Assembly: GCF_016026235.1 (NCBI RefSeq) | Contig: NZ_CP065613.1 | Length of the DNA stretch: 64,000 bases | DNA from: Escherichia coli | GTDB taxonomy: Bacteria; Pseudomonadota; Gammaproteobacteria; Enterobacterales; Enterobacteriaceae | Reading direction: 5' to 3' (one strand) | In this document: piece after piece, positions 10,246 through 16,447 of the stretch | How positions within the stretch are numbered: position 1 is the stretch's first letter | Layout of the letters: the number at the start of each line of letters is the position of its first letter | Made by a program: the position numbers and the translations under genes | Notes under the pieces: model-generated | Seen by the model: only the letters and a program-made list of their open reading frames with translations | Database searches by the model: none | Told to the model about the DNA's origin: nothing

Positions 10246-11622
10246 ATGCGTTTTATGCAACGTTCTAAAGACTCCTTAGCTAAATGGTTAAGCGCGATCC
10301 TCCCCGTGGTCATTGTTGGGCTGGTGGGGCTGTTTGCGGTGACGGTGATTCGCGATTATGGGCGCGAGACTGCCGCCGCCAGACAAACGCTGCTGGAAAA
10401 AGGCAGTGTACTTATTCGCGCTCTTGAATCCGGCTCGCGCGTCGGCATGGGGATGCGCATGCATCATGCGCAGCAGCAGGCCTTACTGGAAGAAATGGCC
10501 GGGCAGCCTGGTGTACGTTGGTTTGCGGTCACGGATGAACAAGGAACAATCGTGATGCATAGCAACTCCGGCATGGTGGGAAAACAGCTTTATTCCCCGC
10601 AGGAAATGCAGCAGTTACATCTGGGAGATGAAGAAGCGTGGCGGCGGATCGATAGCGCAGACGGTGAGCCTGTTCTGGAAATTTATCGCCAGTTTCAACC
10701 GATGTTTGCTGCTGGAATGCACCGGATGCGCCATATGCAGCAGTATGCCGCGACACCACAAGCAATTTTCATCGCTTTCGACGCCAGTAATATTGTGAGT
10801 GCCGAAGATCGTGAGCAGAGAAACACCCTGATTATCCTCTTCGCCCTGGCGACGGTCTTGCTGGCAAGCGTGTTGTCATTCTTCTGGTATCGCCGCTATC
10901 TGCGCTCGCGCCAGCTGTTGCAGGATGAAATGAAGCGCAAAGAGAAGTTGGTGGCACTGGGGCATCTTGCGGCAGGTGTTGCCCACGAAATCCGTAACCC
11001 ACTTTCCTCGATTAAAGGACTGGCGAAATACTTTGCCGAGCGCGCGCCTGCAGGGGGAGAAGCGCATCAACTGGCGCAGGTGATGGCGAAAGAAGCTGAC
11101 CGCTTAAACCGCGTGGTAAGCGAGCTGCTGGAACTGGTTAAGCCAACGCATCTGGCTTTGCAGGCGGTGGATCTCAACACGCTGATTAACCACTCATTAC
11201 AGCTGGTAAGCCAGGATGCAAACAGCCGGGAGATCCAGTTACGCTTTACCGCCAACGACACATTACCGGAAATTCAGGCCGATCCGGACAGGCTGACTCA
11301 GGTCCTGTTGAATCTCTATCTCAATGCTATTCAGGCGATTGGTCAGCATGGCGTGATTAGCGTGACGGCCAGCGAAAGCGGCGCGGGCGTGAAAATCAGC
11401 GTTACCGACAGCGGTAAGGGAATTGCGGCAGATCAGCTTGAAGCCATCTTCACTCCGTACTTCACCACCAAAGCCGAAGGCACCGGATTGGGGCTGGCGG
11501 TCGTGCATAATATTGTTGAACAACACGGTGGTACAATTCAGGTCGCAAGCCAGGAGGGAAAAGGCTCAACGTTCACCCTCTGGCTTCCGGTCAATATTAC
11601 GCGTAAGGACCCACAAGGATGA
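10246..11622 (+). CDS. zraS: sensor histidine kinase ZraS (458 aa)
   Basis: Two TM segments and periplasmic domain, then HisKA (LGHLAAGVAHEIRNPL) and HATPase_c (GTGLGLAVV) motifs. Confidence 0.92.
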   Translation: MRFMQRSKDSLAKWLSAILPVVIVGLVGLFAVTVIRDYGRETAAARQTLLEKGSVLIRALESGSRVGMGMRMHHAQQQALLEEMAGQPGVRWFAVTDEQGTIVMHSNSGMVGKQLYSPQEMQQLHLGDEEAWRRIDSADGEPVLEIYRQFQPMFAAGMHRMRHMQQYAATPQAIFIAFDASNIVSAEDREQRNTLIILFALATVLLASVLSFFWYRRYLRSRQLLQDEMKRKEKLVALGHLAAGVAHEIRNPLSSIKGLAKYFAERAPAGGEAHQLAQVMAKEADRLNRVVSELLELVKPTHLALQAVDLNTLINHSLQLVSQDANSREIQLRFTANDTLPEIQADPDRLTQVLLNLYLNAIQAIGQHGVISVTASESGAGVKISVTDSGKGIAADQLEAIFTPYFTTKAEGTGLGLAVVHNIVEQHGGTIQVASQEGKGSTFTLWLPVNITRKDPQG

Positions 11623-12944
11623 CGCACGATAATATCGATATTCTGGTGGTGGATGATGACATTAGCCACTGCACTATTTTGCAGGCTTTACTGCGCGGCT
11701 GGGGCTATAACGTCGCGCTGGCGAACAGCGGGCGACAGGCGCTGGAGCAGGTGCGGGAACAGGTTTTTGATCTTGTGCTTTGCGATGTGCGAATGGCGGA
11801 GATGGACGGCATCGCCACGCTGAAAGAGATCAAAGCGTTAAACCCGGCGATTCCGGTACTGATTATGACCGCGTACTCCAGCGTCGAGACGGCGGTAGAA
11901 GCGTTGAAAACCGGGGCGCTGGATTATCTCATCAAGCCGCTGGATTTCGATAACCTACAGGCGACGCTGGAAAAGGCGCTCGCGCATACGCACAGTATTG
12001 ATGCTGAAACACCTGCGGTGACTGCCAGCCAGTTCGGTATGGTCGGTAAAAGCCCGGCGATGCAACACCTGCTCAGTGAAATCGCCCTCGTCGCGCCATC
12101 GGAAGCCACGGTGCTGATCCACGGCGATTCCGGCACCGGTAAAGAGCTGGTCGCCAGGGCGATTCACGCCAGTAGCGCACGTAGCGAAAAACCGCTGGTA
12201 ACGCTCAACTGTGCGGCACTCAACGAATCCTTACTGGAATCTGAATTGTTCGGTCACGAAAAAGGGGCGTTTACTGGAGCCGATAAACGCCGGGAAGGGC
12301 GCTTTGTTGAGGCGGACGGCGGCACGCTGTTTCTCGATGAAATTGGCGATATCTCGCCGATGATGCAGGTGCGTCTGCTGCGTGCGATTCAGGAGCGCGA
12401 AGTTCAGCGTGTCGGTAGCAACCAGACTATCTCGGTTGATGTCCGGCTGATTGCGGCGACCCATCGCGATCTTGCCGCAGAGGTGAATGCCGGGCGTTTT
12501 CGCCAGGATCTCTACTATCGCCTGAATGTGGTGGCGATTGAAGTACCATCGCTGCGGCAACGGCGGGAAGATATCCCTCTGCTGGCTGGCCATTTTCTGC
12601 AGCGCTTTGCCGAGCGTAATCGCAAGGCGGTAAAAGGTTTTACGCCCCAGGCGATGGATCTGTTGATTCATTACGACTGGCCGGGAAATATTCGTGAGCT
12701 GGAAAACGCGGTGGAACGGGCAGTGGTGCTGCTGACCGGGGAATATATTTCCGAACGCGAGCTGCCGCTGGCGATTGCCAGTACGCCGATCCCGCTGGGG
12801 CAAAGTCAGGATATTCAGCCGCTGGTGGAAGTGGAAAAAGAGGTGATTCTGGCGGCACTGGAGAAAACGGGCGGCAACAAAACTGAAGCCGCCCGTCAGT
12901 TAGGGATCACGCGTAAAACGTTATTGGCAAAACTGTCGCGTTAG
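11619..12944 (+). CDS. zraR: sigma54-dependent response regulator ZraR (441 aa)
   Basis: Receiver domain, AAA+ sigma54-activator core ([23 protein letters not shown]), C-terminal HTH; overlaps zraS by 4 nt. Confidence 0.93.
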
Positions 12945-14230
12945 TTCTGCTCGCGTTCGATAGCACGCCAGCCGATATCTTTCCGGCAGAAGCAGTCGTC
13001 CCAGTGGATATCGGTCATTAAGGCATAGGCGCGTTTCTGCGCTTCTGCCACGGTATGACCCAGCGCGGTGACGCACAGTACGCGTCCGCCGTTGGTCACT
13101 ACCTGCTCGTCATCCGCCAGTTTTGTGCCCGCGTGGAACACTTTGCCGCCTGCCACTTCTTCCAGCGGCAGGCCGTGGATCACGTCACCGGTGCGGTAAT
13201 CACTCGGATATCCACCCGCAGCCATCACCACGCCGAGAGAAGCGCGTTCATCCCACTCGGACGTTTTCTCGTCCAGTTTGCTTTCACAGGCCGCCAGGCA
13301 GAGCTCAACCAGATCGGACTTCATGCGCAGCATAATCGGCTGGGTTTCCGGATCGCCAAAGCGGCAGTTAAATTCAATAACCTTCGGATTGCCCTGTTTG
13401 TCGATCATCAGGCCCGCGTAGAGAAAACCGGTGTAGGTGTTGCCTTCCGCCGCCATGCCTTTCACGGTTGGCCAGATAATACGTTCCATGGTGCGCTGAT
13501 GAACGTCATCGGTTACTACCGGCGCGGGGGAGTAAGCGCCCATCCCGCCGGTGTTTGGTCCGGTATCTTTATCGCCTACGCGTTTGTGATCCTGGCTGGT
13601 AGCCATCGGCAGCACATGCTCGCCGTCCACCATCACGATAAAGCTCGCTTCTTCGCCATCGAGGAACTCTTCGATAACGATGCGATGACCCGCGTCGCCA
13701 AAAGCGTTGCCCGCCAGCATATCGTGAACAGCCGCTTCCGCTTCTTCCAGCGTCATCGCCACGATAACGCCTTTCCCGGCAGCCAGACCGTCCGCTTTAA
13801 TGACGATTGGCGCGCCTTTCTCACGCAGATACGCCAGCGCAGGTTCTACCTCGGTGAAGTTCTGGTATTCCGCCGTAGGGATCTTATGGCGGGCCAGGAA
13901 ATCTTTGGTAAACGCTTTTGAGCCTTCCAGTTGGGCCGCACCTGCGGTTGGGCCGAAGATTTTCAGCCCGGCGGCGCGGAAGGTATCGACCACGCCTTTC
14001 ACCAGCGGCGCTTCCGGGCCGACGATGGTCAGATCAATCTTTTCGTTTTGTGCGAAATCCAACAGCGCCGGGATATCGGTCACGCCAATAGCAACGTTTT
14101 GCAGCGCGGGTTCCAGCGCAGTGCCTGCATTACCCGGAGCAACAAAAACAGTCTCAACCAGCGGCGACTGGGCCGCTTTCCAGGCCAGCGCGTGCTCGCG
14201 CCCGCCGTTACCAATCACTAATACTTTCAT
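12941..14230 (-). CDS. purD: phosphoribosylamine-glycine ligase PurD (429 aa)
   Basis: MKVLVIGNGGREHALAWKAAQSPLVETVFVAPGNAGTA... Confidence 0.95.
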   Translation of the reverse strand: MKVLVIGNGGREHALAWKAAQSPLVETVFVAPGNAGTALEPALQNVAIGVTDIPALLDFAQNEKIDLTIVGPEAPLVKGVVDTFRAAGLKIFGPTAGAAQLEGSKAFTKDFLARHKIPTAEYQNFTEVEPALAYLREKGAPIVIKADGLAAGKGVIVAMTLEEAEAAVHDMLAGNAFGDAGHRIVIEEFLDGEEASFIVMVDGEHVLPMATSQDHKRVGDKDTGPNTGGMGAYSPAPVVTDDVHQRTMERIIWPTVKGMAAEGNTYTGFLYAGLMIDKQGNPKVIEFNCRFGDPETQPIMLRMKSDLVELCLAACESKLDEKTSEWDERASLGVVMAAGGYPSDYRTGDVIHGLPLEEVAGGKVFHAGTKLADDEQVVTNGGRVLCVTALGHTVAEAQKRAYALMTDIHWDDCFCRKDIGWRAIEREQN

Positions 14231-14241
14231 CTATTGCTCCA

Positions 14242-15831
14242 TTAATGGCGGAAGTGGCGCATGTCGGTGAAGAGCATCGCAATACCGTGCTCGTCGGCGG
14301 CGGCAATCACTTCGTCATCACGGATGGAACCGCCAGGCTGGATTACGCAGGTCACGCCCGCAGCGGCGGCGGCATCAATACCGTCGCGGAACGGGAAGAA
14401 CGCGTCAGAAGCCATCGAGGAACCTTTCACTTCCAGGCCTTCATCGGCAGCTTTAATACCGGCGATTTTCGCGGAGTACACGCGGCTCATCTGGCCCGCG
14501 CCAATACCGATGGTCATATTGTTTTTGGCATAGACGATAGCATTGGATTTCACGAACTTCGCCACTTTCCAGCAGAACAGCGCATCGCGCAGTTCCTGTT
14601 CGGTCGGCTGACGTTGGGTGACGACGCGCAGTTCTTCCGCACCGACCATCCCCAGGTCACGATCCTGAACCAGCAGACCGCCGTTCACGCGTTTGAAATC
14701 AAGACCCGGAACACGCTCGCCCCACTGACCGCAGGTCAGAACGCGTACGTTCTGCTTGGCGGCGGTGATTTTCAGGGCTTCTTCGCTGGCGGAAGGCGCA
14801 ATAATCACTTCGACAAACTGACGAGAAATGATGGCCTGTGCGGTTTCCGCATCTAGCTCGCGGTTAAAGGCAATGATGCCGCCGAATGCGGAGGTTGGGT
14901 CGGTTTTGTACGCGCGATCGTAAGCATCAAGAATGGAATTGCCGATAGCTACACCGCAAGGGTTGGCGTGCTTCACAATCACACATGCCGGCTCGGCGAA
15001 CTCTTTCACGCACTCCAGCGCCGCATCAGTATCGGCGATGTTGTTATAAGAGAGGGCTTTACCCTGAACCTGGGTTGCGGTAGCAACGGAGGCTTCTTTC
15101 ACATTCTCTTCTATATAGAAGGCAGCCTGCTGGTGGCTGTTCTCGCCGTAACGCATATCCTGCTTCTTAATGAAGTTCAGGTTCAGCGTGCGTGGGAAGC
15201 GACCGGCGGCTTCTTTGCTTTCACCGTGGTAAGCCGGAACCATGCTGCCGAAGTAGTTGGCAATCATGCTGTCGTAGGCGGCAGTGTGTTCGAAGGCTTT
15301 GATGGCGAGGTCGAAACGGGTTGCAAGCGTCAGCGATCCTTCGTTGGCATCCATCTCTTTAATAATGGCGTCGTAGTCGCTACTCTTCACCACGATTGCG
15401 ACATCTTTATGGTTCTTGGCGGCGGAGCGCACCATCGTTGGGCCGCCGATATCGATGTTCTCAACCGCATCTTCCAGCGAGCAACCTTCACGGGCCACAG
15501 TCTGGGCGAACGGATACAGGTTAACAACCACCATATCGATAGGCTGGATCTGATGTTCTTCCATAATGGCATCGTCCTGGCCGCGACGGCCCAGAATGCC
15601 ACCATGTACTTTCGGATGCAGGGTCTTCACGCGTCCATCCATCATCTCCGGGAAACCGGTGTAATCGGAAACTTCGGTTACCGGCAGACCTTTTTCTGCT
15701 AACAGACGGGCAGTGCCCCCTGTAGACAGCAGCTCCACACCGCGTGCGGAAAGTGCCTGGGCGAATTCGACGATACCGGCTTTGTCAGAAACACTGAGCA
15801 GAGCGCGGCGGACTGGACGACGTTGTTGCAT
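14242..15831 (-). CDS. purH: bifunctional AICAR transformylase / IMP cyclohydrolase PurH (529 aa)
   Basis: [44 protein letters not shown]... Confidence 0.95.
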
Positions 15832-15938
15832 GGTAAATCCCCTGGATTTGACTATTACAGAGAGCGTTAGCTGAATTTTTCGCGAAAAACTCAGCTAACG
15901 CCCCTAACGGGGCATCTTTATTTTTCGCCCGCATTGTA

Positions 15939-15954
15939 ACGAAAACGTTTGCGC
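15939..15954. promoter_or_regulatory. PurR operator (pur box) of the purHD promoter
   Basis: ACGAAAACGTTTGCGC, a close match to the pur-box palindrome, ~110 nt upstream of purH. Confidence 0.7.
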
Positions 15955-16125
15955 AACGCTCGCGAATTTTTCTCTTTCAATGGTGATCACAATTTTGACA
16001 GTGGTTACCGTGGGAAAAATACAGAAATTACATTGATGATTGTGGATAACTCTGTGCGTAAAAAGGTATAAAGCGGGGTTTTGCTGGGGAATGCAGCAGT
16101 CAGTCATTTTTCTGCAATTTTTCTA

Positions 16126-16263
16126 TTGCGGCCTGCGGAGAACTCCCTATAATGCGCCTCCATCGACACGGCGGATGTGAATCACTTCACACAAACAGCC
16201 GGTTCGGTTGAAGAGAAAAATTCTGAAATTCAGGGTTGACTCTGAAAGAGGAAAGCGTAATAT
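16126..16263 (+). promoter_or_regulatory. rRNA operon tandem promoters P1 and P2 with A/T-rich upstream region
   Basis: P1 -35 TTGCGG (16126) / -10 TATAAT (16148) + GCGCC discriminator; P2 -35 TTGACT (16236) / -10 TAATAT (16258). Confidence 0.8.
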
Positions 16264-16303
16264 ACGCCACCTCGCGACAGTGAGCTGAAAGCCGCGTCGC
16301 AAC

Positions 16304-16315
16304 TGCTCTTTAACA
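16304..16315 (+). promoter_or_regulatory. rrn leader boxA antitermination element
   Basis: TGCTCTTTAACA in the leader upstream of 16S. Confidence 0.8.
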
Positions 16316-16447
16316 ATTTATCAGACAATCTGTGTGGGCACTCGAAGATACGGATTCTTAACGTCGCAAGACGAAAAATGAATACCAAGTCTCAAGAGTG
16401 AACACGTAATTCATTACGAAGTTTAATTCTTTGAGCATCAAACTTTT

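Follow-up and report, generated by a model that had tools for sequence, protein, structure and literature searches.

The window analyzed here is a 64,000-nucleotide stretch of Escherichia coli DNA in which purH and purD follow each other on the minus strand (Table 1). On the plus strand, the rrnE region with its promoters, leader and 16S rRNA starts a few hundred bases past the purH leader. The segment 15780..16130 is a 100% match to the chromosome of an O157:H7 E. coli, and the K-12 counterpart of the interval described below carries no annotated feature. The purHD operon is a textbook example of PurR regulation, and E. coli leaders have been intensively mined. Control of purHD by PurR has been reported, and the operator found in the window, ACGAAAACGTTTGCGC, is the same 16-mer that is given as the purH-purD PurR site in a ChIP-chip table (PMC3159470).

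Table 1. Features of the purHD operon and its upstream region, in coordinates of the window.
Feature	Position	Strand	Description or basis
purD	12941..14230	-	Next ORF after purH
purH	14242..15831	-	529-codon ORF; ATG at 15831..15829
Shine-Dalgarno AGGGGA of purH	15838..15843	-	Sequence
GCUCU, conserved 3' flank of P2	15861..15865	-	Orthologue alignment
P2, 15-bp hairpin GUUAGCUGAGUUUUU-CGCG-AAAAAUUCAGCUAAC	15866..15899	-	One G.U pair; sequence and folding
P1, GC-rich hairpin GCCCC-GUUA-GGGGC	15900..15913	-	About -10 kcal/mol
T-rich run ATCTTTATTTTT	15914..15925	+	Simple terminator scan; putative terminator tail
Predicted purHD transcription start	15925..15926	-	Promoter geometry, 7-8 nt past the -10; leader of ~95 nt
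Candidate -10 hexamer TACAAT	15933..15938	-	Predicted; directly adjoins the PurR box
PurR operator of purHD, ACGAAAACGTTTGCGC	15939..15954		Sequence; context, outside the hairpins

The PurR box and an adjoining hexamer of the form TAnnnT, mostly TACAAT, are kept in approximately 45 orthologous Enterobacterales purH loci. The hexamer varies between TACAAT, TAAAAT, TAGAAT and TATTAT at a fixed position after the box; a simple sigma-70 scan missed TACAAT in the window because its -35 element is poor. The conserved box and hexamer would place the start of transcription about 7 nt downstream (~15926, near 4,207,627 in K-12), so that both hairpins would be transcribed as part of the purHD leader, with 13 nt predicted between the start and P1. 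The Shine-Dalgarno (SD) sequence of purH is embedded in a short hairpin of its own, AAAUCC-AGG-GGAUUU (15849..15835), and also shows complementarity to the CCCC in P1.

Two adjacent palindromes between the PurR box with its -10 hexamer and the purH ATG had been singled out in the original prediction, with positions and sequences that proved exact. On the plus strand, the long palindrome reads GTTAGCTGAATTTTT-cgcg-AAAAACTCAGCTAAC (15866..15899) and has the 14/15 complementarity originally described. Its sole mismatch, A15875/C15890, corresponds to a G.U wobble in the minus-strand sequence. A repeat search extends the long palindrome to 15864..15901, with 19-21-nt arms that are 95% complementary, and ranks it first among the short-range inverted repeats of the whole window. 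The small hairpin, GCCCCtaacGGGGC (15900..15913), adjoins the long palindrome and is directly followed on the plus strand by the T-run, whose minus-strand complement makes up the initial 12 nt of the predicted leader, an A-rich segment. The folding of both palindromes is well beyond chance. The 97-nt leader in the purH sense has a minimum free energy (MFE) of -35.5 kcal/mol compared with -18.8 ± 3.4 kcal/mol for dinucleotide shuffles (z = -4.96, with 0/200 shuffles as good), and a plus-strand 71-mer gave a z of -4.48 against its shuffles. The hairpin region is present in 5419 of 5426 complete E. coli genomes, where it is at least 97% identical and occupies one locus each.

For the comparative analysis we examined the regions upstream of 80 purH loci, taking one genome per species. 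An arrangement of P1, P2 and GCUCU was found at 39 of these loci in addition to the window, in species of the Enterobacteriaceae, Erwiniaceae, Yersiniaceae and Pectobacteriaceae. All species examined have the structure between the conserved PurR box with its -10 hexamer on one side and the SD and ATG of purH on the other. Among the 40 loci the base of P2 is near-invariant, CGUUA...UAACGCUCU (CGUUA...UAACG), and the spacer between P1 and P2 measures 0-1 nt (none in E. coli). The apex of P2 is highly variable and unalignable. P2 ranges from 34 nt in Escherichia, where it is capped by the CGCG tetraloop, up to 98 nt in Cedecea, Serratia and Rahnella, which carry inserts. Downstream of P2 are a GCUCU that is invariant apart from the two lineages described below and a pyrimidine/U-rich tail, and the start codon lies 33-56 nt beyond this unit (146 nt in Siccibacter colletis, locus L027). 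The place of P1 is taken in most orthologues by a hairpin consisting of a C-run, a loop and a G-run that differs in loop and length; four loci (L016, L025, L033 and L041) have a weak version or none.

A covariance model (R1) built from 21 short-form sequences recovered 35 orthologous loci, all in the purH sense, and a search of the 64-kb window with this model gave no significant match other than the purH leader. Searching the window against Rfam 15, even at E <= 10, gave no family match, the ZTP riboswitch (RF01750) included. The only overlapping match was a spurious miRNA hairpin that reached 23.8 bits, the gathering score being 76. A search of 18 orthologous loci likewise matched nothing in Rfam.

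The pattern of substitutions shows that pairing is conserved between species, with compensatory changes. In the 40-sequence alignment 86.8% of the cells are paired, compared with 80.1% after shuffling of the columns and no more than 48.5% with the partners slid against each other. Double changes occur in 13 of the 20 pairs (6.8 ± 1.3 in shuffles) and the covariation score is 0.272 versus 0.158; 0/500 shuffles reach any of the observed measures, in statistics that overstate independence because the sequences are phylogenetically related. Covariation in the 21-sequence set agrees with this result. Within P2 the covarying positions are 5, 10 and 11-15 from the base. The fifth pair (31:144) is GC in 24 sequences, CG in 10, UA in three and UG in two, and the tenth is G.U, A-U or G-C. 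Position 6 is either C-G or a C.C or C.U mismatch, and the first four pairs (GUUA/UAAC) never vary. In P1, 82.5% of the cells of alignment A4 are paired and four of the five pairs show double changes. The persistence of the P2 helix over lengths of 34-98 nt, with an apex that cannot be aligned, is hard to explain without selection for pairing. Because the base of P2, the G-run of P1 and GCUCU are invariant, their pairing is compatible with the alignment and hardly proven by covariation; protein recognition or a DNA-level constraint could also account for their invariance.

The strand distribution of the wobble pairs differs among the groups. In the short-form Enterobacteriaceae, G.U wobbles are found almost only on the purH-sense strand, with no antisense G.U in nearly all sequences, and every sequence except one (L018) favors the sense over the antisense fold, by 0.1-5.7 kcal/mol. 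Overall, there are 78 G.U pairs in the sense and 37 in the antisense orientation, and of the 39 distinct sequences, 27 fold more stably in the sense. The asymmetry is mixed in the long-apex forms of the Yersiniaceae and Erwiniaceae, and Serratia silvae and Rahnella bruchi favor the antisense fold by 15 kcal/mol. Given this G.U asymmetry and the position behind a conserved promoter, we take the purH mRNA to be the functional strand, which these sequence comparisons make likely. With similar confidence, we consider the conserved element to be a functional RNA structure of the sense-strand leader. The earlier assignment of the hairpins to the purH 5' leader is backed by the conserved PurR box and -10 hexamer and by covariation, with a start predicted from promoter geometry.

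Inspection of the flanks of P2 revealed a second conserved pairing. The GGGGC strand of P1 (15904..15900) can pair with GCUCU (15865..15861) through C-G, G-C, G.U, G-C and G.U pairs, which lengthens P2 into a continuous 20-bp helix (15904..15861) and sacrifices P1. The five pairs are present in 32-39 of the 40 sequences, in which both strands are almost invariant. In two lineages GCUCU has become GUUCU with pairing kept, by a double change (GAAC/GUUC) in Brenneria and by a G.U pair in Erwinia psidii. The RNAalifold consensus, computed unguided, is the extended helix and not P1. Constrained ensemble energies of the two folds have a median difference of 1.7 kcal/mol, and the extended fold is favored in 35 of 39 sequences. 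MFE structures with an extended P2 frequently show the released CCCC paired to the G-rich SD. The predicted effect is modest, with a mean unpaired probability of the SD of 0.44 when P1 and P2 are both formed versus 0.33 when P2 is extended. The duplex energies of the C-run with the SD are nearly the same for cognate and non-cognate partners (-8.32 versus -8.29 kcal/mol), so this pairing is without support from covariation, and it is weak in Rahnella and one Klebsiella sp.

Taken together, these observations lead us to favor, by a modest degree, a model in which both palindromes form a cis-acting structure in the 5' leader of the minus-strand purHD mRNA, possibly with a two-state fold. The leader would begin with a single-stranded, A-rich segment of 13 nt and continue with P1, P2 directly after it, GCUCU and, after about 20 nt, the SD. 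The G-run of P1 would have two conserved partners, the C-run within P1 or GCUCU in the 20-bp form of P2. In the first state, with P1 and P2 formed, the C-run would be hidden and the ribosome-binding site available. In the second, with P2 extended, the C-run would be freed to pair with the G-rich SD, or the long duplex would be exposed to processing. Either outcome would lower the translation or stability of the purHD mRNA, on top of repression by PurR. The choice between the states might be made by folding kinetics or temperature, or by a protein or small molecule. The specifically translational version of this two-state mechanism is a tentative proposal, and we would put its chances well short of even.

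Part of this picture has a history. The original K-12 purHD sequence was reported by Flannigan et al. (1990, Mol Microbiol 4:381) and Aiba and Mizobuchi (1989, JBC 264:21239), and the former reportedly mapped the 5' end of the purHD mRNA by primer extension and described two mutually exclusive dyad-symmetry hairpins in the leader. The reported dyad symmetries belong to the same locus and would match P1, P2 and the alternative pairings, and the palindromes as such have probably long been known in E. coli. To our knowledge no function was assigned to them. The searchable literature yielded no paper that contains these hairpin sequences or discusses purHD hairpins, and no experimental report of regulation through the purHD leader. 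The conservation across families, the covariation and the GGGGC:GCUCU alternative come from the present analysis; as far as we have checked, these features, together with the strand signature and the conservation of the competing helix, are undocumented.

Structured leaders are known from other nucleotide-biosynthesis genes. In E. coli and Salmonella, the promoters of pyrC and pyrD carry a PurR box, and their leaders can form a hairpin able to occlude the SD. This hairpin arises by pairing of the extreme 5' end with the SD, and its formation depends on the start nucleotide used, which makes translational control dependent on the start site. The purHD operon resembles pyrC and pyrD in serving nucleotide synthesis, in the PurR box at its promoter and in having a leader structure; it differs in that the structure is internal, is of far greater length and leaves the SD outside. 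In many other phyla, purH is preceded by the ZTP riboswitch (pfl motif, RF01750). The purHD structure is likewise a structured leader before the same gene, a parallel that would make RNA control specific to purH an appealing idea for enterics. Unlike the ZTP riboswitch, it is an almost perfect hairpin with no obvious ligand pocket or pseudoknot and no match to RF01750.

The leader structure is supported by covariation across four Enterobacterales families yet has no Rfam entry. If it modulates translation or stability, it would add a post-transcriptional layer to purine synthesis at the AICAR/ZMP step, a step that is under riboswitch control in many other bacteria, and the purHD leader would offer a compact model in which competing helices are easily mutated. 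Should no effect be measurable, it is an ordinary leader hairpin. A more far-reaching version of the model would make P1, P2 and GCUCU an order-wide two-state riboregulator of purHD in the Enterobacterales whose balance responds to a signal in the cell; temperature, a protein, or a metabolite of purine or folate stress such as ZMP/ZTP could provide it. If true, this element would fill the role of the ZTP riboswitch at enteric purH and explain purine control that is independent of PurR. We regard this version as a long shot.

Several features of P2 are also consistent with an element of processing or stability, in which a helix of at least 20 bp would be a substrate of RNase III or a dsRNA-binding protein and would set the half-life or translatability of purHD. 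The conserved trait is a long, nearly perfect duplex whose apex varies in length and sequence (34-98 nt). In E. coli the extended helix of 20 bp spans about two helical turns, which is the length of an RNase III substrate, and the helix is longer in other genera. The leaders of pnp, rnc and adhE are processed by RNase III and share with purHD a near-perfect 5'-UTR duplex of ~20 bp or longer. The purHD leader differs from them in its conserved helix-base sequence and competing hairpin, which are not typical requirements there. A role as RNase III substrate does not explain why the helix base, P1 and GCUCU are invariant in sequence. In the accessible part of published RNase III site lists, the site in the rrsE leader is the only one in the purH-rrsE interval (PMC5371410), and the main text of a second RNase III dataset paper does not mention purH (PMC6212723). 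We consider this explanation unlikely.

An attenuator on the sense strand is a further alternative that assigns a role to both hairpins. P2, closed by G-C/C-G pairs and followed by its pyrimidine/U-rich tail, would serve as a weak or regulated terminator, and P1 as the anti-terminator. Such an arrangement accords with the mutually exclusive formation of P1 and the base of P2, and with the pair of mutually exclusive dyad symmetries that Flannigan et al. (1990) reportedly described in the purHD leader. In the Erwiniaceae and Yersiniaceae the tail after P2 and its closing G-C pairs is U-rich, with 5-6 U in eight positions (UCUUUUUAUU in Serratia grimesii, UCUUAUUUAC in Pantoea). In the Enterobacteriaceae, including E. 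coli, the corresponding tail UCUCUGUAAU has only 4/8 U and fails a terminator scan. Moreover, the base of the P2 stem is A/U-rich, and the overlap between P1 and the terminator would be just 2-5 nt. K-12 Term-seq in LB and in M63 glucose detected no 3' end in the purH 5' UTR (PMC7815308). Attenuation therefore appears decidedly unlikely.

On the opposite strand, the small GC hairpin together with AUCUUUAUUUUU had been suggested to terminate read-through into the rRNA promoter region. As an intrinsic terminator, it would stop transcripts antisense to purHD before the UP/Fis/P1 region of rrnE. The structural half of this suggestion is borne out: GCCCCTAACGGGGC and ATCTTTATTT form a GC-rich stem-loop directly followed by a T-run, as in intrinsic terminators including bidirectional ones. 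The stem has an energy of about -10 kcal/mol, its 12-nt tail contains nine U, and the unit passes a simple terminator scan. The stop codons of zraR (plus strand) and purD (minus strand) overlap (12941..12944), which leaves no intergenic terminator, so plus-strand read-through into antisense purDH is conceivable. Read-through from zraSR antisense to purD is the only obvious source of a plus-strand transcript.

The proposed function fares poorly. The T-run is essentially confined to Escherichia. It has five T in its first eight nucleotides in the window, against means of 4.0 in the Enterobacteriaceae, 2.4 in the Erwiniaceae and 3.0 in the Yersiniaceae, in which the hairpins persist. The scan threshold of five T in eight was reached only in the window, one other E. 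coli and two non-Escherichia outliers (L012 and L044), with E. albertii at 4/8. These bases also double as the initially transcribed region of purHD, and the wobbles of the short-form Enterobacteriaceae are almost all missing from the plus-strand fold. A scan for promoter-like sites on the plus strand upstream within purHD found none. The terminator scan itself has low specificity, with eight matches in 4.5 kb compared with 5.3 expected. In K-12 Term-seq from LB and M63, no 3' end was recorded at 4,207,5xx-4,207,6xx or under purH (PMC7815308). The same study lists plus-strand transcription antisense to purD as Rho-terminated inside that gene, in a region at K-12 position 4,204,911 (~13210 of the window), ~2.7 kb before the hairpins (PMC7815308). 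Intrinsic terminators lie at gene ends, whereas these hairpins are in a promoter-proximal leader, next to an unconserved T-run and with no mapped 3' end. We give termination on the plus strand little chance, and that chance would lie with E. coli itself. For annotation, whether or not the structure has an effect, the palindromes are best assigned to the purH transcript and not marked as a terminator protecting rrnE.

A role at the level of DNA, with the palindrome serving as a transcription-factor operator on purHD or as a cruciform site, is the least probable of the alternatives and we find it hard to credit. RbsR and PhoP, reported as a repressor and an activator of purHD in addition to PurR, would be possible ligands, and the invariant half-sites CGTTAGCTGA and TCAGCTAACG are palindromic. 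The spacing between these half-sites ranges from 14 to ~80 bp among species, which is incompatible with a dimeric operator and points instead to a hairpin joining them. The apex, including TTTCGCGAAA, is unconserved even within the Enterobacteriaceae, and G.U-type substitutions are tolerated, mostly on one strand. RbsR, a member of the LacI family, would more plausibly use the PurR-box-like AAACGTTTTCG.

Other candidates were rejected. The P2 arms, inspected as half-sites for PurR or RbsR, would be everted and variably spaced, and we judge the resemblance coincidental. A dispersed repeat of the REP, BIME or ERIC type does not fit, as each genome has one locus; the second place returned by BLAST is the reverse-strand self-match of the palindrome. 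Two possible leader peptides were also discarded. The mini-ORF AUG CCC CGU UAG over P1 lacks an SD at a workable distance, and Serratia, Yersinia and Cedecea do not share its AUG, while a 49-aa ORF (15785..15934) begins upstream of the predicted transcription start. A pairing of GCGAAAAA (15928..15921) with UUUUUCGC (15889..15882) is specific to E. coli, unconserved and located partly upstream of that start.

The sequence that follows the hairpin was also considered as a boxA/Nus site and rejected as such for E. coli. As in rrn leaders, a hairpin is followed by CGCUCU, and some Yersiniaceae have CGCUCUUUA at this place. Unlike the rrn-leader boxA, the window has GCTCTCTGTAA, which matches seven of the ten specified positions of the consensus GYTCTTTAANA and carries C in place of T at position 6. 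A C4T/T6C mutation inactivates the suhB boxA, and purH is absent from the boxA lists of the same study (PMC5725501). By comparison, the boxA of rrnE, which the window also contains (16305..16315), matches the consensus perfectly.

The purH leader appears to be under more constraint than the neighbouring spacer, because the differences found in two other E. coli genomes fall outside it. In strain EP91B, an IS3-family insertion (L003 912..1460) separates the purH promoter region from rrnE; strain ATCC 43888 (L002) diverges strongly just upstream of the PurR box, and its leader is identical throughout. The purH-rrnE spacer of the window also contains a small palindrome with a GATC site, AATGGTGATCACAATT.

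Within the leader, one nucleotide is A in the window and G in K-12 and most E. coli (AAAGAUG versus AAGGAUG). Only 48 of 5419 E. coli genomes carry the 74-nt element with at least 99% identity to the window. The common allele places its AAGGAUG immediately 5' of a mini-ORF, AUG CCC CGU UAG, that overlies P1, the GC-rich leader hairpin. Leaders of Enterobacteriaceae and Erwiniaceae keep GGAUG, and the AUG is not kept outside these two families.

Coordinates of features in the window
Feature	Position	Strand
zraR ORF	11619..12944	+
purD ORF	12941..14230	-
zraR/purD stop codon overlap	12941..12944	
Rho-termination region	~13210	+
mini-ORF	15904..15915	-
Variable leader nucleotide	15917	-
purHD discriminator, GCGGGC	15927..15932	-
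Spacer palindrome	15979..15994	
RF02849 match	16093..16326	+
rrnE boxA	16304..16316	+

Long hairpins are also present in the purH leaders of Photorhabdus/Xenorhabdus (L045, L047, L048) and of Vibrio, Aeromonas, Grimontia, and Oceanisphaera (L055-L081). None of these hairpins, which lie outside Enterobacteriaceae, Erwiniaceae, Yersiniaceae, and Pectobacteriaceae, was matched by Rfam or by R1, the covariance model built from 21 short-form purH leaders. The Morganellaceae hairpin has the base GUUAUUG...CAAUAAC and is possibly a diverged homologue. Stems in Vibrionales and Aeromonadales are of the UUUGGCAAA/UUUGCCAAA type.

P2, the long leader hairpin, has an apical insert in Erwiniaceae and Yersiniaceae, where a YUCUAUAUAGAR-type palindrome recurs (L021, L028, L030, L031, L035, L036, L038, L041, L043); some genera have UCUAUAU, which resembles it, after the hairpin. 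The antisense strand outfolds the sense strand by 15 kcal/mol in Serratia silvae (L039) and Rahnella bruchi (L040).

The purHD discriminator, which separates the -10 hexamer from the inferred start, has a high GC content in the window and its relatives (GCCCGCGC, TCCCCGCG). GC-rich discriminators are classically linked to stringent control by ppGpp/DksA.

The rrnE boxA of the window, TGCTCTTTAACAA, served as the internal comparison for the CGCUCU flank in the purH leader. It agrees perfectly with the published consensus GYTCTTTAANA, with a hairpin before it and the boxC-like TGTGTGGG after it. The rrnE promoter/leader region is matched over the full length of Rfam RF02849, 'Yersinia sRNA 197', with a score of 117 bits, below the gathering score of 167. 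Since the model has this match, and has it beside purH in other genera too (L021, L036, L045, L048, L051, L053), the family seems to describe an rrn leader and not an independent sRNA.

The zraR and purD ORFs are convergent and share 4 nt at their stop codons, and thus there is no space for an intergenic terminator between them. A Rho-termination region antisense to purD has been reported at K-12 position 4,204,911 (PMC7815308).
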